Part shown: in pieces, positions 4,060 through 62,360 of the stretch | How positions within the stretch are numbered: position 1 is the first letter of the stretch | Layout of the letters: every line of letters begins with the position of its first letter | Assembly (NCBI GenBank): GCA_964016885.1 | Contig: OZ024743.1 | Coordinates: forward strand, 124,000,001-124,064,000 | Reading direction: 5' to 3' | DNA: 64,000 nucleotides | Origin: Eledone cirrhosa | Lineage: Eukaryota | Translations under genes and position numbers: made by a program | The notes under the pieces: generated by a model | Databases searched by the model: none | Told to the model about the DNA's origin: nothing | The model's input: only the letters and a program-made list of their open reading frames with translations

Positions 4060-9560
<5,501 letters not shown>

Positions 9561-10120
9561 TCACATCCACCAGTGACCCCCCCCCCCCCCCCTTCTTTTT
9601 GATTCACTTACTTTATATCTTCACAATTTTACATATTTTACTTCCCCATTTTCTTCCACTACCTGATATCACATGTCACTTGCGTTTTCAACTCCACATA
9701 TATTCTGTTGTCTCTCATCCTTCCCCCTCCCCCTCCTCCCCCTCCTTGCCTATTCTTCTGTGACACTTTCCCGGGTTTTTCTCTCTTTTTTCTTTATATT
9801 TTACAACTTTACATTCCATTCTTTCTTTACAATCTAAATATTCCTTTTATTTCTATTAAACTGTATTTACATGATATATTCCATAAATAAAATTTCAAAC
9901 TTTAATCCTTATCTATCGACCAGTGGATGTAAACAAACAATCTTATGTTTATGAAATATTGAGCGAATTATGAATTTCTAGCTTAAATATAACTGCCTGA
10001 ATACAGGTGTTTTGACTGAGTAATTGTCGAATAAGTTCTTCGTACTTTAAAAACTTCCTTTCAAGTACCTACTTCATATAGCCTTTACATGGCATAATTG
10101 GTTCATCAATGCCCCCCCCT

Positions 10121-11699: not shown

Positions 11700-12425
11700 A
11701 CTAGTTGTCCAAGCGGAATAGACGGTGCTACATCAGTATGATGTATTCACATGGAAGCCATTATGGAAATGTGATAGATCCTGCCAAAAACTACCAAAAA
11801 TATCATCACCCTATAACTTGCAAACACTAATGAAGTGTGGTAAAATCGACCAATTAATCCGAGGTGCAGAAGCCCAGAAAATTGACATTATAGCAGTCCA
11901 AGAACACTTATGGAGAGGTTCCAATGAACAAAATTCTATCTTATTGCAGAATGGTACCTGGCTCTCCTGTTAAAATAATTGTTTCTACTTTTGGAACAAG
12001 GGCAGCAATTATCCCAGTGTATTACTGGTACTTTATTTTATCGACCCCGTAAGGATGAAAGGCAAAGTTAACCTCGGCGGGATTTGAACTCAGACCATAA
12101 AGGGCCGTAACTCTTTGCTGCAAAGCATTGCGTCAGACCTTCTACCGATACTGCCAATCCATGTTAAAATAATTGTTTCTACTTTAGGCACAAGGCCAGC
12201 AATTACCCAGTGCATTACTGGTACTTTATTTTATCGACCCCAGTAAGGATTTGAACTCAGACCGTAAAGGGACGTAACTATGCTGGAAAGCATGTTAAAA
12301 TAATGCTTTGCCAAATGGAAGTGGAGGAGTCGGTGTCATAATCAACAAGCTCATGTATCACAACATGTCATCCGTCAAAGGATGCAGCGATCGAATACAG
12401 CACACTACCTTCAATGGCAATCTTC
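11700..12425 (+). mobile_element. LINE apurinic endonuclease N-terminal fragment interrupted by two SINEs
   Basis: YNLQTL..IDIIAVQEH (ORF 11725-11973), continuing after the SINEs as NGSGGVGVIINK..SDRI. Confidence 0.7.
11980..12292 (-). mobile_element. two tandem Deu/Nin SINE copies with a shared target-site duplication
   Basis: SINE core present twice; TGTTAAAATAAT at ~11968, ~12162 and ~12293. Confidence 0.85.
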
Positions 12426-17354: not shown

Positions 17355-19735
17355 AAAACATAAAAACAATCAAATCTTAGTTTAATACATTTAATTGCTG
17401 ACAATTGTTTCTTCCAACGAATGTCTGGAATCATCGGAGCATACACAATGTTTAAACAGGTAATTAAAATCCTAGTCTTCAGAATATTTATATAGCTATA
17501 TAACTATTGACAGTATCAGTGACATCATATAGAAAAGCAGGAGTTACAAACAGATGTTATGTTACAGATATCACAGTATAAGGAGCAATGGTGAAAAGTG
17601 AAATATTGAGCATATTATATATAAAGATATTCTTTAAGGTAATACATGTGCAAAAGATACAAGCAAAAAAGGTGTAAGAGAAGATAGATAAAAGATATCA
17701 TAGCATTGAAAAGCAGGTAATGTTAAGGGTATATAATGCAAAAATTAATAAAGGCATGAATGAGGTAAGAGTTATAAAATGAATAAATCAAGCATATTTC
17801 ATACAGAATATTAAAGCATGTTAAAAGTGTTTAAAATGTTAAAAATGGCATGCAATATGGTAAAGAAATATGTGGTGATAAAGTGAATAAATGTTGTGTA
17901 ATGTATAATGTAAAAAATGTAAGTAAATAACATTGGTAATTGTCATTCAAGAATGTTTATATTAGAGTTCGTGTATAAATGTATATGTTGGGTGTAAAGC
18001 AAATGTACTGTACATGGAATGTTTTTAATTTTAGTTGTAATGTGTTTGAGATGTGTACAGTTTAAAAATATATGTGTAGTAAAGATTAATTCCACTGTAT
18101 TACTAGCCATGTTAGTAGGGGAAATATATTATACAGTGCATTCCTATCTTTAAATTTTCTATTAAAAAGTAGTTCACTTTGCTTTATGTGCGAGTTCTAT
18201 TAAGAGTTATTAGACGAAGTCTAATGGTAAAAATGTCGTTAAATTGTTTTAACGTTATGAATTTTAAAAAAATAATTTAAAAAAAAAAAAATAAATAAAG
18301 GAAACGATATTCATAAGGGGAGTTAATAACAAAGGGAGGTAATTAAGGAAGTATTAAGGTTGACAATAATAGAAGGGTTGTTTTATTATTCTAAATTATT
18401 GTTTATTATCTATTGCAAATTATCATTCATTAAATTGTGTTATAAATTAATATTTATAAATTATAAAATATTATTAATGATTATTTATCAATTATATATA
18501 AAAGTTATTTGTTATTCTTATTTATTCAGATTGTGTAAAGAGAGTTAAATTATTAATAACAAGATAGTGATTTATATAATATATTGCGATGTATAATGGA
18601 GTAATTAATGTTGTGGACACTGTTGTCAGCTATTAGTGTTATATATTATTTTAGTAGTAAGGATGGAGAGCATATTAGGGTGTCTAAATTGGTTATTTAT
18701 TTATTTGGTTATTAAGAAAAATTTGATTTCTACTAGATCTAGGAAGGAGTTTATTAATATATATGTATGTTATTGTGATAATTTTGATAATTAATTAAGA
18801 GAACAGGATATCGGATAGGATGTAGGTTGGTGTGGATTGTTAAAGTTAAGGTGTAGTTATATAATTACAAAAAGCTAATGAAATAAACTTAAAGGTAGTA
18901 GTAATATAGTAATATATCAGACATTGTTATATATTAGTTATTTGGTTTGAATAGTAGAAAGAATATCTGTGGTAATATGGACACGTGGAAAATATCTGAT
19001 TTTCTATTTAGCAGGTTGAGATTTGAATGAATAATGGTGCGAGACTCAAGGAGGCAAAGGTTTCAAAGTTTGATTTGTGGTTTATACGAAGCGGCCTTAA
19101 CTATTACTCCCCATTCTAGGGTATTTGATATATTACTTGTTTTTAATGAGTTTATGTATGTGGATATTGAAGTTGCATTACTAAGTCTAGGGTTTCTAAA
19201 CAAATAGAGGTGTGAGTTATATCTGGTTTTAAAACTATTCGATGTTGAACCTATATAAACTTTCGAGATTTGATTAACAGTGACAATACAGGAGTAGACA
19301 ATGTCTTTAATAAGGCATTTATTACTTAATAGACATGTTCTATTAGGTCTACAATTACAATTGTTATGGTTAGTAGTATATTGGTTAAGGGGGTATGCTG
19401 TTGAACGGTTATTACTGTTTATACTTCTAGTATTAAGATTATGGTAAGTATTAATGTCATTATTATTGGTATTATTACTATTATTTGCAATATAGTCCTG
19501 TACTGAGTTATTATTAAGGTTATTTCTATGTTGGACATTATTAACTTGGTGTAATTTGAAGTATTTACTAATCTTCTTTTTGTTACTGCTAGCTATATGG
19601 TCCGCAATGTTAGGTGTGGTAGAGTAAGAGATTTTAATAGTATTTTTGTTAAATAGATTATGGTATTTATGGTTAATGGAGAAGTTTTTATCTATAATTG
19701 AGAAGAAAGCTTTAGGTATGTTGGTGGAGACATTT
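17355..19735 (-). mobile_element. 5'-truncated decayed Penelope-like element D (linker, GIY-YIG, long AT-rich 3' UTR)
   Basis: Manual minus translation: FFSIIDKNFSINHKYHNLFNKNTIKISYSTTPN, NCNCRPNRTCLLSNKCLIKDIVYSC, KVYIGSTSNSFKTRYNSH; (TA)n at both ends. Confidence 0.8.
17396..17441 (-). ncRNA. minimal type I hammerhead, U4C core variant
   Basis: TGCT-CCGATGA-TTCCA GACATTCGT TGGAA-GAAA-CAATTG-TC-AGCA; palindromic helix III; ~40 nt from the element 3' end. Confidence 0.75.
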
Positions 19736-20099
19736 ATTTATATATATATATATATCTGTTACATAGTCACTCCATCTGTCTGTATCTCTCTCTCTCTCTC
19801 TCTGCACACACTCACTCTTTCTTTCTCACTCTGTCTATATATATGGTAGTTGAAGGGGAAGTGGTGGTGGTGATATACCGGAAGTTGAAATTTGAAACTT
19901 TTAAAAGAAGTGAACCTTGAAATAAGTAATACATTAAATTATTTATGTTTAATCATGTGTTATAAAATTTAGTAGATAAATTACATAATATTCATTCATT
20001 ATTTATTCAAAGTAATCCAACTTATTTTACTAACGGGATAAAAAAAATATAAAACGGACGCTGTCCCGAACCCTCCCTTTATTATATTATAGATACCAG

Positions 20100-24365: not shown

Positions 24366-24985
24366 TTATTAAATAAATGGAAACTATATTTATAAAACCA
24401 TATTTATTCTATTATATATATTTCAAGGGTACCAACATTTTGGTACACTATCATCAGATAAAATACGAAGTCTGTTTTATAAATTTTGACATAACCAAGG
24501 ATAATATACCTTAACGGTTCAAGTTATCCCTGGAAAGTGAAGGGAAGAGAAAAAAAACCATATTAATAATTTTAAGTATCTGGTTTTTTCTCTTCCCTTC
24601 ACTTTCCAGGGATAACTTGAACCGTTAAGGTATATTATCCTTGGTTATGTCAAATATTTATAAAACATTTTGTATTTTATATGATGATAGTGTACCAAAA
24701 TTTTGGTACCCTTGAAATATATATAATTGTTTCTACTTTTGGCACAAGGCCATCAATTACCCATTACATTACTGGTACTTTATTTTATCGACCCCGTAAG
24801 GATGAAAGGCAAAGTTAACCTCGGCGGGATTTGAACTCTGACCGCCAAGGGACGTAACTATGCTGGAAAGCATGGCGTCTGATCCTCTACCGATACTGCC
24901 AACCCACCGCCCTCCTTGAAATATATATAATAGAATAAATATGGTTTTATAAATATAGTTTCCATTTATTTAATATCATTGAATA
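24366..24985. mobile_element. fold-back Penelope-like 3'-end element with one HHR per arm; right arm interrupted by a SINE
   Basis: ~195-bp arms around a 20-nt spacer (24561-24580). HHR at 24405-24465(-): TATTTTAT-CTGATGA-T AG.GTACCAA..TTGGTAC.CT T-GAAA-TATATA-TA-ATAGAATA. Confidence 0.85.
24728..24913 (-). mobile_element. full-length Deu/Nin SINE with 18-bp TSD
   Basis: CCTTGAAATATATATAAT at 24710-24727 and 24914-24931. Confidence 0.9.
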
Positions 24986-25793: not shown

Positions 25794-25974
25794 TAAATTT
25801 ATTCATACGTTACTATTGGTTCACCAACTTGAGCACTCGATGTATGGGTGAGTTCTGTTTTAGTAGAGTATGTGGCATTGTACATTTGGTGTTATACTAT
25901 GGTCAGTCTCCTTTATAAGCAGAGGATACTTTGACGCCTCGTTCCTGGTAGTATCCGTAGCGCGTCATACAACA

Positions 25975-26125
25975 TGCATTGCGGCATAGAGTTATGGCCC
26001 TGTGCGTTCTGAGTTCAAACCCCGCCGAGGTTGACTTTTCTTTCACCCTTACGGGTTCGATATATAAAGCACCAGTAATGCACTGGGGTAATTACTGGCC
26101 TTGTGCAAAAATAGAAACAATTATT
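25975..26125 (+). mobile_element. 5'-truncated Deu/Nin SINE (another at 29220-29328)
   Basis: B box GAGTTCAAACC, core and AAT tail. Confidence 0.75.
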
Positions 26126-27413
26126 TTCATTATTATATGTCTGCCCCCAGGCATAGTTATCCTGACCTTCAGACAACAGTTTTATAGAATTGGCGTCAGA
26201 GCTAGCAGTATATTGCTCTAATCAAGAATTGTCCCTATTTACTGATAGTTAAATTAAATGTATCTGTCAACGAAGTGACAACTTATTTGTTAGTTATCTG
26301 AAAAAAACAAGTAACAGCCAGCCGGTGTTATTACTGTAAAATCTAGTTGATATTTTGGTTCAAGTTTATTTACTAGTAACTAAGCTAGGCCTTAAATTAC
26401 CTTAAATTACAGTCAGGAGTAGAGATTTGATTTACGTAAAATATTCAGATTTCTTGGTATTATAGAGTTTGTGGTGAGGATTATATTTCATGTATTTATA
26501 GTGGAATAGGTGAAGTGGGTGATTACTATTTATTATGCAATGTAATGGGTCTACGTTTGTCTTAGGTACGTATATGTGTTCCAGTGGGGATCATGGGGCT
26601 GTCTGCGTGGATTGATATTTCTGTAATGGTGTGCTAGGATGAATGTTGTCGTTTTAATGTGTTGTCGTTTTAATGCCGCTATCGGGGAAAATGTTGTAGT
26701 ACGTACCTATTTATGAGTACATGTATATGACTGAAGTGTTGGAATGTGCAGCTTGGGTAGGTGCGAGATGAGGTGCTTATGCACATATGTAATTAATTTC
26801 TATAGGCCTGTTGTCTGGACGTCACGATAACCATGCTTGGGGGCTGACATACACACACACCCAATAAAATAAATAAAATTCCACCTCCTCTCAATGATTA
26901 TTCTATCTCAAGTTGAAGAGACAGATACAGTCAGATGTGCGCATAGGCACACACATGTATATATACACACTCACTAAACTAGGTATCTACACGTAGAACC
27001 AATCCCTAATAAAAATTTAAAAAAAATAAAAATTAACACTTATATGAAAAGAATTTACAATTGGATAAATAACATAACCTTATTTGGATATACAGCTAGT
27101 AAACCGCCATGCCCTTCGGCAAACAGTCAGGAACTAGCTGTTGAAATGGCAAGAGCTCAGCCGTCGGGTCCCGACTTTTTATTATATAACCATGCTCACT
27201 ACCCCATGTATCGAGTACTCTGTTGAATAATGGACTAACCAGCTTCAAACTGATTCCATCCCGATATATATATATATATATACATACATATATATATACA
27301 TATATATATATATATAAGGGAACGGGCGAAGGCTTCGAAAACATCATCTTCGTCCGTTCCCTTGTCGTTTTAATTTGGATTGCCTCGAGAACGTAACATT
27401 ATTACGTAATAGA

Positions 27414-28880: not shown

Positions 28881-28924
28881 ACCGTCCTGACGAAGGCCAG
28901 TTAAGCCTGAAATGCATAGACGGT
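28881..28924 (+). ncRNA. canonical minimal type I hammerhead with palindromic helix III
   Basis: ACCGTC-CTGACGA-AGGC CAGTTAA GCCT-GAAA-TGCA-TA-GACGGT; helices I and II fully Watson-Crick; ~150 nt upstream of a TA tract. Confidence 0.88.
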
Positions 28925-29733: not shown

Positions 29734-30290
29734 AGAATGAAAAATGGCGTGTTGTGTTGTTGCAAATCTGATATACAAATTAAAATGAAGAATTAGAAAT
29801 AGAGGCCAGGACTATCCATCATCAGTGGTCTTCTAGCCATCATAGGTATTTCTTCGCATTAAAGACCAGATACCTCAGGCTAGCGCGAACAATAACTAAA
29901 ATAAGTTATTGGGATAAAAAGAATTGGGTGGAGAAAGAGAGACAGGTAAACAAACACAAATGGTGAGGCAACGTAAAGAGAGGAAAAAATGAGAAAATCA
30001 AGTCTATGATTCATTTGAACATAAGAACTTGAGAATATTGACGAGAAGACGAAAGACACATCTTAACCGTGCGAAAGTAAGCGAGGAAAGAATTTCGCAC
30101 GGTGTGGGACGATGGGGGAAGTGATAGAGAGGGTGAGTAGCAGAGAGTGAGTGAGTGAAAGTGTGAGGAAGAGGCTAGCCGAGAGAGGATGACTAGCAGA
30201 GAGGGTGCATGAAAGTAAGAGGGACAAGGAGAGAGAAGGAGAGGGAGAAAGAGGATAGCAGTAAGGGAAGAGAAAAAGACAGGTCATTGC
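29731..30290 (-). mobile_element. diverged copy of the ~635-bp non-coding unit, joined head-to-head to Penelope-like element C
   Basis: Collinear with 23511-24140 (e.g. GTAAACAAAC..ATGGTGA.GCAACG, GAGAGTGAGTGAGTGAA.GTGAGGAAGAGGCTA); 3' end at (TG)n. Confidence 0.75.
29814..29915 (-). ncRNA. candidate reverse-order hammerhead, copy 4 (diverged, supplies the covariation)
   Basis: ATCC CAATAAC..GTTATTG TTCGC G CTAGCC TGA GGTAT-C-TGGTCTT TAAT GCGA A GAA-ATACC TATGAT GGCTAG AAGACCA-CTGATGA-T GGAT. Confidence 0.68.
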
Positions 30291-32942
30291 GAAGGAGAAA
30301 GCATAATCCTCAATGCCCGTAAGTCGGTGATTAATTTCGACGACTCTATTTGGATTAGAAAATCTAATATTACCCCATTCGACGTGAGTATGGGCGCCGG
30401 CGATTCTGCGGAGGTTACTGATCTTATCGGCCTTTTCCTTCTTTTCTCTATCAAGGAAGAATTCCCCAACGTGGGCGGTGGTTTGTACCGTGATGATGGT
30501 CTTTTGACCATGACTAAGTGCGGCCCACGTGCTTGCGACAGGTTCAGAAAAGAACTCACAGCCTTCTTTAAAGGCTTCAACCTCTCCATACAGGTTGAGG
30601 CCAACCTCTCGGTCGTTAATTACCTCGACGTTACCCTCAATTTATCGAATGGATTGCATTACCCGTATAGAAAGCCGAATGATACGCTTAATTACATAAG
30701 TAAGCATTCTAACCATCCTGCCAGCATAACCAAGAACCTGGTAAGAAACGTTTCTTTGAGGCTTTCCCGTCTATCTACTAACGAGCATATTTTCAACGAC
30801 CATTCCACATATTACAATGAAGCTCTTTCTCGGAGTGGATTTGTCGATAAGCTAGCATATACAGAGTACGAGAATAGACCTAGAAGAAATAGATCCCGAC
30901 GCATTATATGGTATAACCCACCATATAATATGGAGGTGACTACACCATTAGCTAACATCTTTCTCTCCCTTATTATGAAGCATTTTTCCCCTACACATAA
31001 ATATAGTAAAATGTTTAATAGAAATACTATTAAAATTTCTTACTCTACGACTCCTAACCTTGCACATAACATCACAGCTTCAAATTTAGCTAAACTACCA
31101 AGCCGTAGGAACACGTGCAACACTGTAGTTAGTACTAACTGTAATTGTAGGAATCGGGTTAACTGCTCCCTAGCCGGGAAATGCCTCTCTAGTAACATTG
31201 TCTACAAATGTAAGGTTGAAACACCCACGTCCCGTAGGGTCTAATAGGGTTAACCGCCAATAGATTCAAATAGCGTTTTTACATGCATACCCATTCTTTT
31301 CGTAACCTTTAAGAAGGAATATGACGTCACTTTCAGCTTATATCTGGGGTCTAAAAGACAACCACACCCAATATAAGTTACACTGGGAGATCCTAGGTAG
31401 GGCTAGATCGTATAACGGAAATAAAAGACCATGTGACCTCTGCGCCTCTGAGGCCCTAGAAATACTCTACGCCAAAGACCACATCTTAAACAAAAAATCT
31501 GAGGCAATTTCGGCTTGTAAACATAAATTGCACAAAACTTTCCTGTATTACAGCCCCACATTATACCCTAACGGATAGTACGAACTATACGCGGATATTT
31601 TACGTCTTGATGTGGTAGCTAAATATATGTTATGTTTATACCATTACTTGTTTGTATAGGTAAGTATATATTACCTGTATGTTTTGTGAAGGTACGTATA
31701 CTTTCTCGTACGTATATTTGATTGTATATGTTATGGCGTATATATTATATATTCTGGTTCATATGCTTTTGGTTATGTGTATACGTGAGTTTTGCGTCTG
31801 TGTGAGTATGCGGGTTCGTACGTATGTAGGGTGTGTGTATATGTGTACTTTGTGTTTTGGTTGACGTACGTGTCCGAACATATGTGTATTTACATGTAGG
31901 TATGTGTGTGCGCTTGTTATAAACGTATTTATTTATTTATATACGTTTATTTAATTATATGTATACACGCACACACACACACATATATATATATTTTTTT
32001 TTTATATATATTTGTATGTGTATTTGGTGTATACATTCGTATGCGTGCGGGTACAGGCGATGCGTGGGTTCTGTATGTGCGTGCGGGTTTTTTTGTTTTG
32101 TTTTTTTTGTGTACGTGCGTGTATTTGTATACCTATGGCGAGTGTTTTCGCGTATGCGTATATGGATGCGTGTATGTATTTATTTAATTTCAATTACCTC
32201 TGTATTTTATTTACTTTATTCTTAACTCTGAAGCCGAGAATCATTCGGTTTCCTAGTTAGAATTATAGTCTACGACTTCTGCTATACCATTTACGTGGTT
32301 TTGTATTTGCGTGCAATTGTTCTCCTCGCTCGACATATGACGTATTATCTTCGTTTTTTTCCGTTCATTGCCAGAGAACGTCTCTATGAACCACCTAATA
32401 GAATATTAGTCTACAACTTCTTTTATACCATAAACGTGGTTTTGTCTTTGCGTGTAATTGTTTTTCACCGCTCCAAATAATTATTTCTACTTTTGGCACA
32501 AGGCCAGCAATTTTCCCAGTGTATTACTGGTACTTTATTTTATCGACCCCGTAAGGATGAAAGGCAAAGTTAACCTCGGTGGGATTTGAACTCAGACCAT
32601 AAAGGGCCGTAACTCTTTGCTGCAAAGCATGGCGTCCGACCCTCTACCGATACTTCCAATCCACCGCCCAAATAATGACGTATTATATTCGTTTCCACGA
32701 ACCAAAGTATCGTCTTCCTGTCTTCCTCCGGTTGCAACGTTTTTGAAATATTTACTTCTGCGTTCACAGATTTACTTTGTTAGTTTCAGAAGATCCCGTT
32801 AAGGGTGAAAGCAGCGATTCTTTGCTTAAACTTTAATCTGTTATTTTAATAAATATTTGCTCTACAGTTCTTGTATATTTGATATATATTTATCCTTATC
32901 GAGCCCTCTTTGGATTTTAGTCTTCAAATTTATTATTATTAC
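30291..32942 (+). mobile_element. 5'-truncated Penelope-like (Naiad-type) element C: RT C-half, GIY-YIG, 3' UTR with HHR (32782-32832) and SINE insertion (32480-32667)
   Basis: ORF 30327-31244 FDVSMGAGDSAEVTDLIG, GLYRDDGL, NYLDVTL, IIWYNPPY, CNCRNRVNCSLAGKC; ORF 31321-31578 CDLCASE..LNKKSE; ends at (TA)n. Confidence 0.92.
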
Positions 32943-38571: not shown

Positions 38572-38645
<74 letters not shown>

Positions 38646-38649
<4 letters not shown>

Positions 38650-39032
38650 GGAAAAAAATGAAACGAAATTTCATTTCCCACTCTTCGTACGGCTGTTACT
38701 TAAATATAAGTATGTATACGTACATACATATATGTATACAGACGTACAGTAGTATGTATATATATATATATACATACATGCACACACATATATATATGTA
38801 CGTATGGATTCACCGAACATTTATTATAATGCTCGGTGTGTTTGTAAACAAACATCCCGAATTAAGCCGTACAGTGTCTAGCAACCATCGTTGCTCATTT
38901 GTTCAACATTGACAAAGGAACGCTGTACTAGTTTCAAGTTTATTTGCTATCGTCAGCAACGTATACCTTCCTGCCAGATGATTGAACGTCTGAAAGTATA
39001 TACTTTCCTTATGCATATTAACGGCTGAGCAG

Positions 39033-39034
<2 letters not shown>
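38646..39034 (-). mobile_element. diverged single partial copy of the 466-bp HHR unit, between (TA)n tracts
   Basis: Collinear with the 45308-48667 array unit; HHR 38920-38962: ACGTTG-CTGACGA-TAGC..CTT-GAAA-CTAG-TA-CAGCGT. Confidence 0.85.
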
Positions 39035-39092
<58 letters not shown>

Positions 39093-39094
<2 letters not shown>

Positions 39095-39588
39095 ATCATC
39101 ATCATCATCATCATCAGGTCGAGCTTGCTCGGCTTTCTACGACACGTTTCCTCCATCCATCTCTGTCTCTCATAGCGTTTGCCAGTTCTTCCGCAGTGCA
39201 TCCAGTATCGTCCTCAAGTTCTTGACGTATGTCTTCTTGGGACGAGCAGCGTTTCTTGGTCCATGAGATGGACTCCATAATAACACATCACCTGATATTT
39301 CTTTCTTGCTGCGCCAACAGTGGCCAGTAAATCTGAGTCTCTGTCCACGTATTGACCTGCTGATAGGTGGTATATTGCCATAGAGATCCTTATTTGTTGG
39401 GTGCTCCCTCAAAGACACGTTTAAAGCAGCGCGGAGCATACGTGTGTATGCCCCGTCTAGCTTTTTCTCCAGTTTCGACGTTAGCGTCCAAGTGACAGAG
39501 CCGTAAACAAGCACAGATTCCACAGCAGCTCTGAAGAAATTCCTTTTCAGCTTGGCCGGCAGGTTTGATTTCCATATCTTTTCCATTG
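39093..39588 (-). mobile_element. 3' end of an RTE-type LINE with (TGA)n tail
   Basis: [41 protein letters not shown]; (TCA)n at 39093-39115. Confidence 0.85.
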
Positions 39589-39610: not shown

Positions 39611-42638
<3,028 letters not shown>

Positions 42639-43215: not shown

Positions 43216-43985
43216 TCTTTGCGTTTGCTCGATGGGGCTGGGATCATCCTAGATCAGTGATACCAGAGGCGCCATCGTGCGTAGAGCCGACCTGGTCCAC
43301 CAGTGACCTCCATCGCTGGCGGCCCTGTGCTAGCCCCTCTGGATCTTCCAATGTGACGTCGAGTCTCTGGAGTCTTCCTTAATCACATCCAGCCATTTGT
43401 TGCGGGGCCTGACGGGGCTTATTCCAGCCCACAACTGCTGTATCGAACGAAAGTAAGGCTGAGGGCTGATGCACGCGTGCACGCAGCTCTTTGTTAGAAA
43501 CGTGGTGACATCATCTGATGTTCTTGATGGTCTTCTTTGCTAGGGGTCTTCGTGAGAGGCCACGTTTCTGCTCCATAACAGAGAACAGAGAGAATCGATG
43601 CGTTGTAGATACGGAGCTTTGTTTTCAGGGAGATGAGCAGTGGTGCCAATGGGGCTTCCATAGGGAGTGCATGGCCCCTGGTGGTCAAACTACATCTACG
43701 GTTGATCTCTGGGGCCAAGTCTCCATTGGTGGAGACTATGGAGTCCAGGTAAATGAAGGAGCTGACTAACTCCACGACGCAGGGGAGGATCTGGGCCTTC
43801 GCTGACATACTTCGCCCAGCTCACCTGAAGGCCAAGCTTTACTGATTCTTCTCGGCATATGGTCAATACGTCCCTGAGCTGATCGATCGAGTTGCTGGAC
43901 AGAGTATTCGAAGTCGGTAAGGTGATAGTTCCCGAAGGTAACGTCGGAAACTCACTCACAGACCTTGGTCATCAGATAGTCGATG
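43216..43985 (-). mobile_element. decayed RTE-type LINE 3' region
   Basis: LGLQVSWAK, FIYLDSIV, ISLKTKLRIYNASILSVLCYGAETWPL. Confidence 0.8.
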
Positions 43986-44064: not shown

Positions 44065-45240
44065 TGATGGCTGCCCCCTCGTTATCGAGTATGGCCATTG
44101 CACGATATACCATTGTTAATAATTATTAATTAGTTCTATCGTGCAATGCCTGTGCGTGAAGATATTTTTTAAAGTGAGGAAAGACTGTGCACTGAGCCAG
44201 TCCAACTCTCTAAGCGACAGTAGCTATAACCCGAAAAGAAGAAAAGATCAACATCATCGGTAACTACCGAGCCGCAGGTTTTGTATCGGAGTTATCCCAG
44301 TTTCCTGAGTTGCCTTCTCCTAGAAGAATGCCCTGACAAAGGTTAGGGGTCCTTCACTCCCAGTGGTTTAACCGCGCGATCGGGTGTCCAGCCCGACTAT
44401 TTCTATGTCCCCGCGCATATACATACACATGCACCCATGTATATACACATATACATATACATACATATGTACATGTGTATATACGTATTTACACACTTTT
44501 GGATGGCCGTTGACTCTTATGAGTTCTTCGGCCCTTTCTTATGTTTTGTTTTTTGTCCTGCAGGGTATCCAAATTCACCCTCCTCACCAAGTAAACTTGG
44601 TGGGGTTGCCGGTTTAGTCGGCGACGACCCGACCATGCGACAGGTTGTACTGGGTTATATGTTACCAGTAGCACTCAAAGAGTGACCCGACATATATACA
44701 TATATACATACATGGTGGCTGAAAACTCTGTTAAGAGTATTGCAATCGCTTGTCAGATTACAGAAAATGGTGCACCTTTAGGCTATAGCCAGCCACACGA
44801 ACCTGTAACATAACCTGAACAAGCAATACCTATACTTTGAAGGTCTTTTAAGTGGGGAAAAGCCTTACACTCGACCAATCCCATTCTCTGAGCATTGAAA
44901 ACACTACCTGAAAAGGAGAACTGGTCAACATCATCGGATTCTTCCGAAGTCGCAGGGTTTTTTTTTGGGGGGGGGGGGGTCCCTCTCCTAGAAAGGTGTT
45001 GTGATAACTGGGGGCCTTTCACTCCCAGGACAAGAAAAAAAAAAGTACTATTTGGATGGCCATTGACTGAGTTCATCCGTCTTTTGCCGGGTCTTGTATT
45101 CATCCCGCATGGTGTCCAAATATCACCCTCCTCACCAAGCAAGCTTGGTGGCTTTGCCGGTTTAGTCGCCGACTACCCGACCATGAGACAGGTTGTACTG
45201 GGTTACATGTTACCCGTAGCACTCGAGAGCGACCTGACAT
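44065..45240 (-). mobile_element. cluster of SINE or LINE-5'UTR-like fragments including two diverged ~190-bp copies (44498-44692, 45050-45240)
   Basis: Shared TTTGGATGGCC.TTGACT...TCACCCTCCTCACCAAG..CTTGGTGG..TTGCCGGTTTAGTCG...GTAGCACTC; 44065-44410 and 44710-45030 are also mutually similar. Confidence 0.55.
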
Positions 45241-45274
45241 AACATACAAACATACAGACATACGTACGTGCATG

Positions 45275-45307
<33 letters not shown>

Positions 45308-45310
<3 letters not shown>

Positions 45311-48300
45311 TATGCATGTATACGTACATACATATATGTATACAGACGTACAGTAGCATGCACATATATATATATATATACATATATACATACATATGCA
45401 TACAGGTACACATACATATATGCACGTATCAGTTTAGCGGCGCTAACGTCGCTTTGTTCGTTTGTAAACAAACTGAACAGCCTGAATTTATGCCATACGG
45501 TGTTAAGGCAACCACGTCACCTTTTTGTTCAACACTGACACAGGAACGATGTACTAGTTTCAAGCTTGTTAGCTATCATCAGCACCGTTTACCCATCTGC
45601 CAGATAGTTGAACGTTCGAAAGTATATACTTTCCTTATGAAAATTAACGGCTGAGCAGCCTAATTTGCATATTGAGTGAGTTAAATCGGTCAGGCATACC
45701 GAAAACGATAAATTGAAACAAAATGAAAACGAAATTTCATTTCTCACTCTTAGTATGGCACTTACTTAAATGTAAGTATGCATGTATACGTACATACATA
45801 TATGTATACAGACGTACAGTAGCATGCACATATATATATATATATACATATATACATACATATGCATACAGGTACACATACATATATGCACGTATCAGTT
45901 TAGCGGCGCTAACGTCGCTTTGTTCGTTTGTAAACAAACTGAACAGCCTGAATTTATGCCATACGGTGTTAAGGCAACCACGTCACCTTTTTGTTCAACA
46001 CTGACACAGGAACGATGTACTAGTTTCAAGCTTGTTAGCTATCATCAGCACCGTTTACCCATCTGCCAGATAGTTGAACGTTCGAAAGTATATACTTTCC
46101 TTATGAAAATTAACGGCTGAGCAGCCTAATTTGCATATTGAGTGAGTTAAATCGGTCAGGCATACCGAAAACGATAAATTGAAACAAAATGAAAACGAAA
46201 TTTCATTTCTCACTCTTAGTATGGCACTTACTTAAATGTAAGTATGCATGTATACGTACATACATATATGTATACAGACGTACAGTAGCATGCACATATA
46301 TATATATATATACATATATACATACATATGCATACAGGTACACATACATATATGCACGTATCAGTTTAGCGGCGCTAACGTCGCTTTGTTCGTTTGTAAA
46401 CAAACTGAACAGCCTGAATTTATGCCATACGGTGTTAAGGCAACCACGTCACCTTTTTGTTCAACACTGACACAGGAACGATGTACTAGTTTCAAGCTTG
46501 TTAGCTATCATCAGCACCGTTTACCCATCTGCCAGATAGTTGAACGTTCGAAAGTATATACTTTCCTTATGAAAATTAACGGCTGAGCAGCCTAATTTGC
46601 ATATTGAGTGAGTTAAATCGGTCAGGCATACCGAAAACGATAAATTGAAACAAAATGAAAACGAAATTTCATTTCTCACTCTTAGTATGGCACTTACTTA
46701 AATGTAAGTATGCATGTATACGTACATACATATATGTATACAGACGTACAGTAGCATGCACATATATATATATATATACATATATACATACATATGCATA
46801 CAGGTACACATACATATATGCACGTATCAGTTTAGCGGCGCTAACGTCGCTTTGTTCGTTTGTAAACAAACTGAACAGCCTGAATTTATGCCATACGGTG
46901 TTAAGGCAACCACGTCACCTTTTTGTTCAACACTGACACAGGAACGATGTACTAGTTTCAAGCTTGTTAGCTATCATCAGCACCGTTTACCCATCTGCCA
47001 GATAGTTGAACGTTCGAAAGTATATACTTTCCTTATGAAAATTAACGGCTGAGCAGCCTAATTTGCATATTGAGTGAGTTAAATCGGTCAGGCATACCGA
47101 AAACGATAAATTGAAACAAAATGAAAACGAAATTTCATTTCTCACTCTTAGTATGGCACTTACTTAAATGTAAGTATGCATGTATACGTACATACATATA
47201 TGTATACAGACGTACAGTAGCATGCACATATATATATATATATACATATATACATACATATGCATACAGGTACACATACATATATGCACGTATCAGTTTA
47301 GCGGCGCTAACGTCGCTTTGTTCGTTTGTAAACAAACTGAACAGCCTGAATTTATGCCATACGGTGTTAAGGCAACCACGTCACCTTTTTGTTCAACACT
47401 GACACAGGAACGATGTACTAGTTTCAAGCTTGTTAGCTATCATCAGCACCGTTTACCCATCTGCCAGATAGTTGAACGTTCGAAAGTATATACTTTCCTT
47501 ATGAAAATTAACGGCTGAGCAGCCTAATTTGCATATTGAGTGAGTTAAATCGGTCAGGCATACCGAAAACGATAAATTGAAACAAAATGAAAACGAAATT
47601 TCATTTCTCACTCTTAGTATGGCACTTACTTAAATGTAAGTATGCATGTATACGTACATACATATATGTATACAGACGTACAGTAGCATGCACATATATA
47701 TATATATATACATATATACATACATATGCATACAGGTACACATACATATATGCACGTATCAGTTTAGCGGCGCTAACGTCGCTTTGTTCGTTTGTAAACA
47801 AACTGAACAGCCTGAATTTATGCCATACGGTGTTAAGGCAACCACGTCACCTTTTTGTTCAACACTGACACAGGAACGATGTACTAGTTTCAAGCTTGTT
47901 AGCTATCATCAGCACCGTTTACCCATCTGCCAGATAGTTGAACGTTCGAAAGTATATACTTTCCTTATGAAAATTAACGGCTGAGCAGCCTAATTTGCAT
48001 ATTGAGTGAGTTAAATCGGTCAGGCATACCGAAAACGATAAATTGAAACAAAATGAAAACGAAATTTCATTTCTCACTCTTAGTATGGCACTTACTTAAA
48101 TGTAAGTATGCATGTATACGTACATACATATATGTATACAGACGTACAGTAGCATGCACATATATATATATATATACATATATACATACATATGCATACA
48201 GGTACACATACATATATGCACGTATCAGTTTAGCGGCGCTAACGTCGCTTTGTTCGTTTGTAAACAAACTGAACAGCCTGAATTTATGCCATACGGTGTT

Positions 48301-48865
48301 AAGGCAACCACGTCACCTTTTTGTTCAACACTGACACAGGAACGATGTACTAGTTTCAAGCTTGTTAGCTATCATCAGCACCGTTTACCCATCTGCCAGA
48401 TAGTTGAACGTTCGAAAGTATATACTTTCCTTATGAAAATTAACGGCTGAGCAGCCTAATTTGCATATTGAGTGAGTTAAATCGGTCAGGCATACCGAAA
48501 ACGATAAATTGAAACAAAATGAAAACGAAATTTCATTTCTCACTCTTAGTATGGCACTTACTTAAATGTAAGTATGCATGTATACGTACATACATATATG
48601 TATACAGACGTACAGTAGCATGCACATATATATATATATATACATATATACATACATATGCATATATGCGCCGCTAAACTGATACGTGCATATATGTATG
48701 TGTACCTGTATGCATATGTATGTATATATGTATATATATATATATATATGTGCATGCTACTGTACGTCTGTATACATATATGTATGTACGTATACATGCA
48801 TACTTACATTTAAGTAAGTGCCATACTAAGAGTGAGAAATGAAATTTCGTTTTCATTTTGTTTCA

Positions 48866-48868
<3 letters not shown>
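45308..48868 (-). repeat. tandem array of ~7.2 apparently identical 466-bp hammerhead-containing units plus inverted terminal segment (48668-48868); retrozyme-like
   Basis: Identical ORF translations at 466-bp spacing. HHR AACGGTG-CTGATGA-T AGCT AACA AGCT T-GAAA-CTAG-TA-CATCGTT at 45545-45589 and six times +466 (last 48341-48385); (TA)n at both ends. Confidence 0.9.
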
Positions 48869-48913
<45 letters not shown>

Positions 48914-48916
<3 letters not shown>

Positions 48917-49162
48917 AAGAAATTAAAAGATGGTTAAAAAAGTTCCATGTATTTTATTATGCGCATTTATTCTATCTGATGAGAACGCAAATATCGTCCT
49001 TAGATGATATTTGTTTTTGAAATGCGCATAATAAAATACATGGAACTTTTTTAACCATCTTTTAATTTCTTCTTATATATACTCCAGTCCAATAAACTGT
49101 TGAGTGCTACTTATCCGATATTTGCATTGCTTTATTGTGCTACAATAAAACTCACCTCCTAC
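48914..49162. mobile_element. mini fold-back Penelope-like insertion built around one hammerhead (48968-49038 +)
   Basis: ~54-bp arms 48914-48967 / 49020-49074 plus ~88-nt tail; TATTCTAT-CTGATGA-GAA.GCAAATATC..GATATTTGT.TTT-GAAA-TGCGCA-TA-ATAAAATA. Confidence 0.85.
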
Positions 49163-49185
49163 ATATATATATATATATATATATA

Positions 49186-49271
<86 letters not shown>

Positions 49272-49632
49272 ACAGTAGAAAATGTTGAAGAGATTTTTTT
49301 CAGTGAGATATCAAAACATTAATTTATTTACAATACCGGTTTCAGCATTATGTGCATTGTCAATTGCGGATATGCAGAATATTGTATATTGTTAAGTTGC
49401 ATATTTGTACATCCTACTCTGCTTCTGCTTATAGCAGAGTAGGATGGACAGAGAAATGAACTCTCTTCTCTGAATGAACATGTATGTGAAATCTAATTTA
49501 TCTTCTTAATTTTTCTTAATTATTATTATTATTATTTTCACTATCTGTACAAATATGCAACTTAACAATATTCTGCATATCCGCAATTGACAATGCATAT
49601 AATGCTGAAACCGGTATTGTAAATAAATTAAT

Positions 49633-55209
<5,577 letters not shown>

Positions 55210-55677: not shown

Positions 55678-57968
55678 ATGCCGAGGTCGCAGCGAGGTGG
55701 AGATGGCGGTACGGGGAAGGAAATAAGGCTTTCTGCCATCGTAGTTGACAACGTGGTGGATGGGATCGGCGTGGTTATGGGCATGGCGGTGGCGCAACCC
55801 ACGAAGAACAAGGTGAGGCCGGTGCTGGACTTTCGGGAGCTGAACGAGCACGTGTCATGCCACACGGGTGGCGAGGTCACGGATGTCTGTGGGGAAACCC
55901 TGCATGAGTGGAGACGCATGACGGGGGGTTCAGCAATCGTAGATCTAAAGTCGGCATACTTGCAATTGCATATAGATGAGAAGCTCTGGCAGTATCAGCT
56001 GGTCAGGTATAAGGGCCGGACATATTGCCTGACCAGGCTCGGTTTCGGGCTGAGCTCCGCACCGAAGATCATGGCGGCGGTCCTCAAGACCATTCAGGGA
56101 AAGGCCGACAAGATGAAGGGGGCCACTAACTCCTACATTGACGACATCCTAGTGGACGAGTCTGTAGTGTCGGCGGCGGAGGTCACGAGCCATTTACAGG
56201 GGTATGGATTGGCTGCGAAGCCGTCAGAAGCGTTGGAGGGAGGAGCCGCGCTGGGACTTAGGCTACGGCGAGACAGGACGGGCGTCTTGGTATTCCAGAG
56301 GGGAAATGAAGTTCCAGAACTGGGCCCAAGTATGAGTAGCCGGGAGCTTTTCTCGGTGTGTGGAAATTTGGTGGGTCACTACCCGATTGTTGGGTGGCTC
56401 CGGAGGGCATGCAGCTATGTCAAGAGACGAGCGGGATGGGTGACTTGGAGTGACAGAGTGGGAGAGAGGACGGTGGCCATGATGCAGGAGATCGTGGAGA
56501 GGGTGAAGGCCGACGACCCAGTGCGGGGACGCTGGTATGTTCCCAAATCGCAGAGCGGGACCGTATGGTGCGATGCCAGCAGCATAGCGCTGGGTGTCAC
56601 GTTGGAGATAGGTGTTGAGGTCGGGGATGCAGCCTGGCTTAGGAAGAAGGATGACTGCAACCACATCAATGTGGCCGAACTGGACGCAGTGTTGAGAGGG
56701 GTGAACCTCGCCCTGAGGTGGGGACTGCGCACCATCGAGATACGCACCGACTCGGCTACTGTACTCGGATGGGTGAGATCAGTGCTCACCAGTGAGAAGA
56801 GAGTGCGAACGAGAGAGACGGCGGAGATGCTGATAAAGCGCCGCCTGGGAACTTTAGGAGAGCTGGCCACCGAGTTAGACCTGAGGCTGAGCGTAGTTTT
56901 CGTGCCCTCAGAGAAAAATAGGACAGACGTCTTAACCAGGGTGAAGAAAGCCTGGATGGAAGCGCCGGAGGAGGTAGAAGATGAGATAGCTGCCGTGTGT
57001 CGGCTGACCGAGTCGGATCTGAAAGGGTTGCATGACATGCACCACATGGGAGTGGATAGGACCCTGTTCCTAGCCAGGAGAATCGACTCGGACGTTAACA
57101 GACACAGTGTTCAAAGGGTGGTTAGAGGCTGCGTCCGATGTGAGTCCATTGATCCCGCCCCGGTGTGCACGAAACGGGAAGCCTCCCGGTGGATCGCGAT
57201 TGGAAGCGATTGGCGGTGGATGTAACGCACTACCGACAGGGAACGTACCTCTCGATGGTCGACTGTGGACCAGGACGGATGGCGATATGGGGGGAGATGA
57301 AGACTGGAACGGCCGAGGAAATCATGCGGACGTTGAGAGAGGTGTTCTTGGAGCGGGGCCCTGTGGACGAACTGCTGGTGGACAACAGCGCGGCGTTCCG
57401 CTCGGAGGCGCTGAGGGAGATGCTCGATGGATGGAAGGTGGACCGTTTCTTCAGAGCAGCGCACAGGCCGAGCGGGAATGGAATTGTAGAGCGACACCAC
57501 CGGACGATCAAGGCAATGGCGGAGCGGGGCCATATCTCACTAATGGAGGCAGTGTTCTGGTACAACATGTCCCCTCGGGTGGGACAGGTCGAGGAATCGG
57601 TGCCACACAGAGCAGTATTCAGATACGAGTGGCGGCACCCGTGCACGCCACCACAACGGCTAGTGGGGAGAGAGAATTCATTCGTGCAGGTGGGCGAAGA
57701 AGTCTGGGTTAAGCCCCCAGATGCACATTGCACATCTCAATGGGGAAGGGCAACGGTGACGGCCGTAAATTCCCAGAACAATGTGTCCGTGGACGGAGTA
57801 CCACGTCATGTCCTGGATGTCCGTATAATCACTGTGTCAACGGACTCCGAGGAAGAGGAAACTCAAAGTGCCGCCCCAACACTGCGGAGATCGCAAAGAA
57901 GTCGCAAACCACCAACCTGGACAGCAGACTTTCATATGCAGAAGGACGAGGGGGAAATTGATCCTTGA
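55678..57968 (+). pseudogene. pol: Ty3/Gypsy pol (protease remnant, RT, RNase H, integrase) with a frameshift near 57170
   Basis: KVRPVLDFRELN, DLKSAYLQ, LGFGLSSAP, YIDD, WCDAS..HINVAEL..RTDS, HHMG..C..C, LAVDVT..MVDC..VDNS..GNGIVERHHRTIK; RT-RH-IN order. Confidence 0.92.
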
Positions 57969-58620: not shown

Positions 58621-58654
<34 letters not shown>

Positions 58655-58658
<4 letters not shown>

Positions 58659-59448
58659 GAAACAATTATTATGAGTTCAAATAGGGCGGTGGATTGGCAG
58701 TATCGGTAGAGGGCCGGACGCCATGCTTTGACGCATTCCGAGTTCAAATCCCGCCAAGGTTAACTTTGCCTTTCATCCTTACGGGGTCGATAAAATAAAG
58801 TACCAGTAATGCACTGGGTAATTGCTGGTCTTGTGCCAAACGTAGAAACAATTATTATGAGTTCAAATAGGGCGGTGGATTGGCAATATCGGTAGAGGGT
58901 CAGACGCGATGCTTTGCTGCATAGAGTTACGGCCTTTTATGATCTGAGTTCAAATCCCGCCGAGGTTAACTTTGCCTTTCACCTTACGGGGTCGATAAAA
59001 TAAAGTACCAGTCACGCACTGGGGTCGATTTAATCGATTTTCCCCTCACCAAAAATTGCTGGCCTTGTGCCTATATAAGAAACAATTATTATGAGTTCAA
59101 ATCCTGCTGAGGTTAACTTTGCCTTTCGTCCTTACTGGGTCGATAAAATAAATAACCAGTAATGCACTGGGTATTTGCTGGCCTTGTGCCAAAAGTAGAA
59201 ACAATTATTAATCCCGCTGAGATTAACTTTGCCTTTCATCCTTACTGGGTCTATAAAATACAGCACCAGTAATGCACTGAGATAACTGCTGGCCTTGTGC
59301 CAAAAGTAGAAACAATTATTATTAAAGTACCAGTAATGCACTGGAATAACTGCTGGCCTTGTGCCAAAAGTAGAAACAATTATTATTAAAGTACCAGTAA
59401 TGCACTGGAATAATTGCTGGCTTTGTGACAAAAGTAGAAACAATTATT
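58655..59448 (+). mobile_element. head-to-tail stack of about 7 full and truncated Deu/Nin SINEs
   Basis: Repeated ...AGTAGAAACAATTATTA tails; ATTATTATGAGTTCAAAT occurs three times at junctions. Confidence 0.9.
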
Positions 59449-59694
59449 ACTGTTCTATATTATATTCTATTCCTACAGTTATACTGAATCACGTGCAGCA
59501 TTATGCTAAATACGATATAGACAGAGAAATTTGAAATGGGAAGAGTCCCAAATGTAGAAAAAAAACGGTAGTATTAGACGATCACTATAAGTATTTTAGA
59601 AAATTCAGTAAATAACTGAGAAGAACCTCTATCCACTTTTTCCGTCTCTAAGGGTAATTTATCCTATTTTTTCAACTATATATATATATATATA

Positions 59695-60714: not shown

Positions 60715-61554
60715 TATTTCTTTTGTTGTTAAAACCAAAAGTCTGTCTTTCAGGGTTTCTTGGTAAAGTGTCCCCAACTGTCAGTTCACCCTCATGGTTT
60801 CAATTTCAAGTACAAGGTCAGCAATTTTGACACGAGGCCAGCAATTCTGGCTCATGACCAACAGTTTGCTGCAAGGTCAGCAATGTTGGCACAATTCCAC
60901 CAATTTTGAATTATGTATGCAAAAAAATCCATTAAGAATCATCAATAATAGAGAATAAAGTTACTTCATCATCACTTTTTTTCACTTGACACTAATGCAT
61001 TGATTTAATGGAGAACTAATAAAATTCTATAACTAACTACATGATCATACTCAACCAAACAATCAAATTGTATCTTAAACAGATAGTGATTTAAGCCATG
61101 TTCTCTCCATAAAATGAGAGAATTTTTGAACTCCAGTTAGAGGGATGACAGTTAGAGCATATCTCCATGTCTTTCCATCTCACTTAACTTTTGAAAATCA
61201 TGAAACTGTGAAACTGGTAAAGTTATTGTAAATAAATCTTCTTTCTTAAAGACTCTAAGTGCATTTTGACTTCTTTTCTTTATATTCCTACCCATGTAGA
61301 ATTTTTTTAAATCCCCTCCCTTTCTCTCTCTATATATATATATTTCAAATTTACCATCCATTATCAATGTTGGGGTTCGTAGGGTGGTCTTTGGGGAGAT
61401 CAGAGATTTCCTTCCTGGCTGCTGTTTATTTTTTATTTAAAATAATAAACGACCTGCCCAAACCGTGATAGCATGGAAAAGCAGGCATAAAATGATGATG
61501 ATAATTGTTTCTACTTTTGGCACAAGGCCAGTAATTATCCCACTACGTTATATA

Positions 61555-62360
61555 TATGTATGATGCTACATGGCAGTGAGACATGGGCATTACGTGCAGA
61601 AAACCTGCGTAGACTGGAAAGGAACGAAGCATGCATGCTCCGTTGGATGTGTAATAGTAATATACGTGAACGGCAAAACATAAATGAACTAAGTGAGAAA
61701 TTAGAAATAAGAGGGATCAGATGCTGTTTACTCGAGAGAAGACTACGTTGGTATGGCCACGTGATGCGCATGAAAGACGACAGCTGTATAAAAAAGTGCA
61801 GGGCGATCAAAATTGATGGTAGATACGGAGTAGGTAGACCCAGAAAAACCTGGGACGATCTGATAAATTCCGACCTTGCACACTTGCACCTCTCTAAGAC
61901 AATGTCACTGGACCGAGATCTTTGGCACTACGCAGTAATAGAGAAGACCCGCCTTGCCTATGTACAAAGCGAAACCTACAGTCAGTAGGCACCTCTTAAC
62001 CAAATATACACCCCAATCCACTACCCTCCCACTCCCACCAACACCACCCTCTCTCTATAAAGTTGGTACCACAACATCCAGTCCAAATAAATGAGATCGA
62101 GATCGTGTAGGTGTCACGAGAAAAAAACACACAGTCCACGCTGTAATGTGGCCGTGTAGGTAACACAGTAAAAAGTTCCCAGTTCCACACTGTAAATGTG
62201 GTTGGTGTTAGGAAGGCATCCAGCCGTAGAAAACCTGCCAGATAGTCCTATATGAGCGAGACATGGTCACCCGACCAACCTTGCCTCAAGTGGGACAACT
62301 CCCGTCTAACCCATGCTAGCATGGAAAATGGACGTTAAACGAAGTTGATGATGATGATGA
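61555..62360 (+). mobile_element. 3' end of an RTE-like LINE with 3' UTR and (GAT)n tail
   Basis: ORF 61560-61988 MLHGSETW..MLRWMC..RRLRWYGHVMR..GRPRKTW; related UTR-only copy at 62525-62833. Confidence 0.85.

Follow-up and report, generated by a model that had tools for sequence, protein, structure and literature searches.

A two-armed hammerhead array in Eledone cirrhosa, probably a retrozyme inserted by Penelope-like machinery from a circular RNA

The array and its surroundings

The window, by which we mean the whole 64-kb stretch of DNA that was analysed, contains no N bases and holds a tandem array composed of a long arm and a short, inverted arm, with a (TA)n tract on either side. The features of this locus and two neighbouring copies are listed below, with the strand where one applies; unit bases (u) are counted from position 45307.

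45278..45308: left (TA)n target tract, following the (ACAT)n tail of a SINE-like repeat at 45051-45277; read from the sequence
45307..48664, minus strand (RNA sense is minus): long arm of 7.2 identical 466-bp units; from period search, unit comparison and arm parsing
45307..45440, minus strand: (UA)n/(UG)-rich part of the unit with a predicted long hairpin (fold z = -7.8)
45546..45588, minus strand: minimal type I hammerhead, first of 7, repeating every 466 nt to 48342-48384; from motif search
48665..48667: arm junction with 3 extra nt (TAT), completing the palindrome GCATATATGC, which occurs once genome-wide
48668..48871, plus strand (RNA sense is plus): short arm, unit bases 402-466 followed by 1-137, without a hammerhead
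48869..48914: right (TA)n target tract; from sequence repeat search
38644..39036, minus strand: one-armed, older member of this family (78% identity), with its start at unit base ~402 and both ends in (TA)n
48914..49165, plus strand: two-armed end fragment of a different Penelope-like family, with helix III AUGCGCAU; from sequence comparison

The perfect period-466 run in the window sequence is 3,358 nt long (7.206 copies), and its seven full units are a single distinct sequence with a GC content of 36%. We infer that this arm is a cDNA that started at unit base 1 and was truncated at its 5' end at base 96 of the eighth unit. The inverted arm measures 204 nt, differs from the direct units solely by one extra TA, and ends in the "tail" (unit bases 402-466, at 48807-48871). 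The two arms stop at unequal points, base 96 for the direct arm and base 137 for the inverted one, so that the inverted piece does not mirror the end of the array. Because both ends of the array lie within (TA)n, no target-site duplication is readable. The stretch 45307-45440 is the site of most of the length variation, and of most A>G changes, among relatives of the array.

A preliminary description of this DNA had reported a 466-bp unit present in about 7.2 identical copies and containing a minimal type I hammerhead ribozyme with an ACUAGU helix III, an inverted copy of about 200 bp, and (TA)n at both ends; our analysis recovered all of these. It had also likened the architecture to that of nearby Penelope-like insertions, and the neighbour at 48914-49165 does have the same layout as the array, with one short start and one tail start; it is a separate insertion into the same (TA)n hot spot. 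The diverged monomer to which it had ascribed a preserved core and a compatible helix I is the copy at 38644-39036, which amounts to about 0.85 unit and keeps the CUGACGA core and a 6-bp helix I.

The array is non-coding: its lone stop-to-stop frame of at least 150 aa is of low complexity and enters from the flank. A tblastn search with five protein pieces of Penelope-like elements (PLEs) gave zero matches between 45.3 and 48.9 kb, and an open reading frame combining reverse transcriptase (RT) and GIY-YIG, as in an autonomous PLE, is absent from the array.

Several other repeats lie in the window. A repeat pair at 44498-44713 and 45051-45261 includes the SINE-like repeat to the left of the array. 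A SINE-like repeat of ~190 bp is found at 11970-12250, 24712-24931, 25946-26127, 32475-32669, 49621-49819, 52337-52531, 55021-55209 and 58653-59449, and is tandemly rearranged at 58.7-59.4 kb. The stretch 55678-57968 (+) is GC-rich and resembles the pol gene of an LTR retrotransposon, with weak Pfam matches to RT and RNase H and an integrase-like second frame. Fragments resembling the 3' part of a LINE open reading frame were recognized by eye at 39170-39580 (-), 43240-43980 and 61491-61988 (+), with zero Pfam matches for the one that was scanned. At 49314-49637 there is an inverted pair, 91% identical over 99 nt, which contains GAAACCGGUA; CUGANGA was looked for upstream of GAAACCGGUA in this stretch and not found, and the pair is possibly a decayed two-armed PLE end.

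The array belongs to a family dispersed over many loci, from monomers to multimers. The exact hammerhead 33-mer has 10,608 matches in the 3.0-Gb genome and the relaxed hammerhead core 26,644, while a 31-mer of the young subfamily occurs at 4,461 places and a 36-mer of the old subfamily at 5,003; reversed-pattern controls for these motif counts gave 0. The loci sampled for comparison were drawn from the first 100 places of each motif search, mostly on contig C1, and are biased toward copies holding the searched motif. The modal 466-nt unit of the window array is also that of three other arrays (L041, L082 and L094), one of which has 17 full units. The window array carries no private mark, and its own template is therefore unreadable from this locus.

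On the minus strand all seven units carry the motif ACGGUG-CUGAUGA-U AGCU AACA AGCU U-GAA-ACUAGU-A|CAUCGU, which was not obtained in any of 20,000 dinucleotide shuffles of the unit. Helix I has 6 bp (ACGGUG/CAUCGU), helix II has 4 bp (AGCU-AACA-AGCU) closed by U·U, and helix III is the palindrome ACUAGU. The CUGANGA, GAAA and NUH elements of a type I hammerhead core are present, and the predicted cut, GUA|C, falls between 45552 and 45551 (u246/u245) and then every 466 nt. The G10.1-C11.1 pair, counted as highly conserved in hammerheads in the available text of PMC4209133, is replaced at the closing position of helix II by U·U, and a scan of the window at the Rfam gathering threshold gave no match. 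The same U·U followed by AGCU/AGCU is found in 26 of the 28 readable rows of the old subfamily. A hammerhead lies in range in 28 of 30 old-subfamily rows picked by a motif outside the ribozyme, and the differences that recur in old copies affect N7, loop II and a single base pair of helix I, whose pairing is preserved. The third pair of helix I is G·U, A-U or U·G depending on the subfamily, in copies again picked through a motif outside the ribozyme, a compensatory change that involves one position only and few independent events. The pair A15.1-U16.1 is absent from the predicted monomer fold, and two ACUAGU helices are predicted to form a 6-bp homoduplex (-4.8 kcal/mol), a short palindrome that suits dimer cleavage. 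The hammerhead of the array is predicted to cut itself as a dimer. Minimal hammerheads cleave weakly in vitro (PMC4209133, available text), and 8 of 9 Xenopus dimers did not cleave according to the accessible part of bioRxiv 10.64898/2026.07.22.740005. For the Poseidon element PAc, the hammerhead is dispensable for insertion and unprocessed RNA is the main substrate (PMC11167929). Like the U·U closure of helix II, these reports speak against the rolling-circle reading proposed below. Type I hammerheads of other families occur in the window at 28887 (+), 42417 (+), 39801 (-), 24457 (-) and 48976 (+), with helices III AUGCAU, ACCACUGGU, AUAUAUAU and AUGCGCAU.

Two start sites and a candidate helper

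Family members have their outer ends at one of two fixed sites, u~461-1 or u~402, and (TA)n almost always precedes them; TA-rich DNA precedes 96 of 115 parsed arm starts, a count that includes a few false starts. The two sites are 65 nt apart, and the stretch between them is the tail. Automatic pairing of back-to-back copies gave 32 pairs, and in 31 of them the two arms use different start sites (p = 1.5e-8 if each arm chose freely); in the remaining copy, L052, which carries an internal deletion, the real start lies at u402. Starts were mixed in all 14 further two-armed loci, found among 20 stretches, so that in 45 of 46 two-armed copies one arm begins at base ~1 and the other at base 402. 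In the available text of PMC8557442 the PLE tail is described at one end only, and in the in vitro reaction of Poseidon, which cuts and extends both strands, it is flanked by two RT start sites (PMC11167929). The tail and start-site layout of the unit is thus PLE-like. The second arm was likely primed from the other DNA end at the second fixed start site, as the pairing of starts suggests.

The "fold-back" end of the preliminary description gave way to a second arm on this evidence. Fold-back of a single cDNA was rejected on the different bases at which the arms of the window array end (96 versus 137), and symmetric turns were found in only about three loci (L037, L046 and L062). Of the 32 pairs, 21 have arms that overlap by 1-6 nt, some of this overlap being due to chance, and most junctions between the two cDNA ends involve a short stretch of common sequence. 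The inner ends are spread evenly over the unit, with 1 of 114 falling within u240-250, that is, within 5 nt of the cleavage site. A linear monomer template with run-off at the cut was rejected on this count, in a sample chosen by motifs inside the unit and hence enriched in arms that cross the site. In the paired-arm set an arm may run through as many as 7 cleavage sites, and in the 20-stretch set through many more; no recurrent indel or scar was seen at the cleavage site among the full units listed. The spread of inner ends and the lack of such an indel indicate that linear monomers were not the template.

In loci L054, L056, L038 and L064, retrozyme arms are joined to other repeat or PLE sequence without (TA)n, and the pairing of a short start with a tail start still holds in L054 and L056.

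PLE fragments in the window and in the sampled loci have an RT followed by a CxCx5C linker and GIY-YIG-like motifs. This is the Hydra layout, which goes with a (TA)n preference (PMC8557442, available text); a Pfam scan did not recognize the GIY-YIG pieces, and the assignment rests on the motifs and on that source. The family with a AUGCGCAU hammerhead at its 3' end is of Hydra type and young, with 97-100% identity among the 150 matches listed, about 50 of which, by manual count, have an 821-aa open frame. Its sequence is joined directly to retrozyme arms, without (TA)n, in L054 and L056. These joins may reflect template switching or later deletion and are no more than a lead to the helper. No similarity was detected between the unit and the sampled ends of this family at 5 loci. 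The AUGCGCAU family is therefore proposed as a candidate helper of the retrozyme and not as its parent. PLE open reading frames beside arrays in L033 and L035 were considered as parent or helper and rejected, as they are separated from the arrays by (TA)n or other repeats. In the young Hydra-type PLE (L168-L179), some copies lie about 3.9 kb apart in tandem and the tail runs into the 5' end of the open reading frame. Fragments of several Hydra-like PLE families, some as inverted pairs, lie in the window at 4951-5304, 6984-8497, 9011-9566, 13031-15863, 18982-19737, 30219-31845 and 41298-42417.

We hold it nearly certain that PLE machinery inserted the array, and that the array is an ordinary young copy within a very large family of retrozymes. 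By its testable features, it belongs to the metazoan non-LTR retrozymes.

The template of the array

The preliminary description had taken unit identity as evidence of a circle. This argument carries little weight, since three other arrays have the same modal unit and 4,461 places match the young 31-mer. The modal unit of the window is not unique, and support for a circle therefore comes from other copies. Among 21 young arrays of at least 4 full units there are 18 distinct modal units. Within the 385T lineage, where arrays were selected for carrying 385T or 236G, each of the 10 arrays has a modal unit of its own, the differences lying mostly in (TA)n length. Marks present on both arms were found at 236G (L066), 13C (L093), 59C (L091), 121C (L151) and 409A (L142), and the pair 409A+425A is near-private, being present in 2 loci only. 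As private marks 385T and 236G were rejected; they have 471 and 98 matches, respectively, and mark lineages. Array-wide marks favour a circle, because 5'-truncated copying of a linear multimer would not be able to spread a change in one unit.

Clusters of A>G changes on one strand, in or near a long hairpin, are a mark of ADAR editing. In L136 (contig C1:160404000-160413000) two unit types, A and B, alternate strictly as a dimer for 6 rounds. Relative to the 385T lineage there are 11 changes outside microsatellites, and every one is A>G in the RNA sense, with U as the 5' neighbour at 7 sites, A at 3, C at 1 and G at 0. The second arm and the tail are in register with the dimer, and the 11 full units contain no private substitutions. 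An editing pattern belongs to one molecule, and six exact repeats of it therefore point to one dimeric circle; L136 is likely a copy of such an edited circle, although it could also be an edited dimer later duplicated as DNA. Its five-edit pattern occurs elsewhere in only two places, both fragments of the old subfamily that have A>G clusters of their own, and for this reason no donor of L136 was found. Two old-subfamily stretches, L157:3478-3600 and L156:3360-3622, have dense A>G clusters at the hairpin sites of L136, and three A>G changes are common to both arms of L032. Read-through of the cleavage sites, the array-wide units and marks, the dimer of L136 and the changes in L032 are four results at family level in favour of a circle. 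Across 122 loci there is no family-wide excess of A>G (120, against 115 U>C), and without the three edited loci the count is 100 against 115, so that the evidence for editing comes from few loci. The clusters on the hammerhead strand in L136, L032, L156 and L157 indirectly indicate passage through RNA.

Not all arrays are homogeneous, which speaks against the circular reading. In L147/148 a block of 10 units recurs with nested variants in common, a pattern resembling duplication at the DNA level; L082/083 has a recurring two-unit pattern, and L087 has blocks. In L144 (contig C2:328964000-328969500) the change 252C, which alters the hammerhead core (A15.1>G), is found only in unit 2 and on both arms, suggesting that both arms copied one multimeric RNA in register. 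These four cases require multimeric templates or DNA-level duplication. The L147/L148 array (contig C3:180041500-180058500) has about 28 units, many of which carry 251C, a change that breaks helix III.

Could the same two-ended PLE insertion have used a long, linear, uncut multimer transcribed from a homogeneous donor array, with no circle at all? A donor of sufficient length exists, given that the modal unit of the window is shared by an array of 17 full units; unit-specific marks in L144 and L082 stand at matching or near-matching rank on both arms; and the hammerhead is weak, unprocessed RNA being the main substrate of PAc in vitro (PMC11167929). Yet 5'-truncated linear copying can only shorten arrays, which sits poorly with the own modal units of 18 of 21 young arrays, among them every one of the 10 arrays in the 385T lineage; in a linear multimer each unit should acquire its own set of edits, not one that recurs with period 2 six times over; and a monomer bottleneck would still be required in an earlier generation. 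We regard this route as unlikely, if the most serious competitor. Less probable again, in our estimate, is a Penelope-type insertion of one or two units that unequal crossing-over or slippage later expanded in place as a minisatellite. The preprint by Li et al. (bioRxiv 10.64898/2026.07.22.740005) prefers this explanation, and the 10-unit block of L147/148, repeated about 2.7 times with its nested variants, and smaller patterns in L034 and L087 speak for it. Such graded or nested sharing of variants among units is absent from the window array, however, and is seen only in a minority of relatives such as L147/148. Moreover, seven units identical even in (TA)n leave no time for about six rounds of growth, both inverted arms are multi-unit with marks in common in many loci, and the units of the old array L058 differ mostly by private changes on one haplotype, with no graded blocks.

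An assembly or library artefact, such as a fold-back read or a collapsed or polished repeat, might be suspected from the perfect identity and the inverted end of a locus read from the assembly alone. The junction is nevertheless asymmetric (96 versus 137) and unique in the genome, there is no N in the window, and the inverted arm ends in (TA)n at the fixed base-402 start of the family, as in dozens of loci. Contigs of the independent sequencing run X2 have TA-rich loose ends at the base-402 start (47 records), although contigs of runs X1, X2, X5 and X6 are of a kind unable to show ends or circles. We consider an artefact very improbable.

Weighing these alternatives, we think that a circular RNA was probably the template of this array. 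Of the rolling-circle insertion put forward in the preliminary description, we retain the single PLE-type event, the retrozyme-like nature of the unit and, as most likely, the circular template; the fold-back and the appeal to unit identity are dropped. With reasonable confidence, we propose that the array is a recent retrozyme insertion into (TA)n, in which a Penelope-like RT/GIY-YIG protein rolled on a 466-nt circular RNA from both cut ends. An existing array would be transcribed on the hammerhead strand, as the A>G clusters in relatives suggest. Neighbouring hammerheads would pair through ACUAGU and cut, and a host ligase would close the monomer, by analogy with the available account in PMC7229834. 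The endonuclease would then cut both strands in (TA)n, the target seen here, in the manner of PMC11167929. Priming would begin from one DNA end at unit base ~461-1 and from the second at ~402, the two starts that are seen, presumably on the same RNA molecule. Each RT would roll past the ligated cleavage site and stop at random, here after 7.2 and 0.4 laps, and the two cDNA ends would be joined, mostly over a few shared bases, as the junctions record.

A more specific version, toward which we lean only slightly, concerns how Penelope-like elements integrate. In it, a protein dimer primes the two ends of a single DNA break on the same RNA circle, at two fixed positions separated by 65 nt, and both RTs roll. 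The genome would then hold heritable DNA records of individual RNA molecules, among them a dimeric circle that had undergone A-to-I editing and was copied six times. If true, the genome itself would prove that rolling-circle retrotransposition occurs in animals, and one step would account for both the PLE tail and the inverted arm.

Significance and relation to known systems

The step from retrozyme to tandem array, the one-sided tail of PLEs and the inverted arm are presented as open questions in PMC11167929 and in the available text of PMC7229834, PMC8557442 and bioRxiv 10.64898/2026.07.22.740005. Copying of a circular RNA into tandem cDNA by a PLE is the proposal of PMC7229834 and of that preprint, and reverse transcription of a circle over more than one unit was proposed in 2014 and 2020 (PMC4209133, PMC7229834; available text in each case). 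The pattern of the relatives described here indicates that this long-proposed rolling-circle step likely took place. The family offers countable footprints: the rule of one start per end, read-through of cleavage sites, units specific to one array that appear on both of its arms, and an edited dimer repeated six times. The value lies in these family-level footprints, the window locus itself being an ordinary young member. The presence of a young, intact PLE family in the same genome makes the circle-to-array step testable in vitro with defined parts.

As described in the available text of PMC7229834 and bioRxiv 10.64898/2026.07.22.740005, metazoan non-LTR retrozymes resemble the array in having a non-coding tandem unit of a few hundred bases with low GC, one type I hammerhead per unit, thousands of dispersed copies and co-occurring PLEs. 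They are described there as head-to-tail tandems, whereas we find back-to-back arms, two fixed starts, (TA)n targeting and edited repeats; positions 10.1-11.1 are U·U here. For the retrozymes of coral, mussel and axolotl, the available accounts report cleavage and circles, while the present family is known from sequence. In the literature available to us, mostly non-subscription and in part incomplete, we found no two-armed retrozyme insertions, no one-start-per-end rule and no edited repeats.

EN+ PLEs of the Hydra clade share with the array the partial tandems, the inverted 5'-truncated copy, the tail at one end, the insertion bias for (TA)n and the palindromic helix III (PMC8557442, PMC4209133; available text). 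The array differs from them in having no open reading frame and a tail of 65 nt, against the 30-40 nt given for PLEs in the same available text. In the in vitro reaction of Poseidon PAc (PMC11167929), as here, both strands of AT-rich DNA are cut and extended and two internal RT starts bound the tail; its protein is a predicted dimer and its template is linear. No start-site difference between the strands was seen in that reaction, whereas one of each kind is found here in 45 of 46 two-armed genomic copies.

In L1 twin priming, two primers at one target give rise to an inverted 5' piece joined by microhomology. The second priming site of L1 is variable and internal, whereas in the family described here it is fixed, and both arms can be multi-unit.
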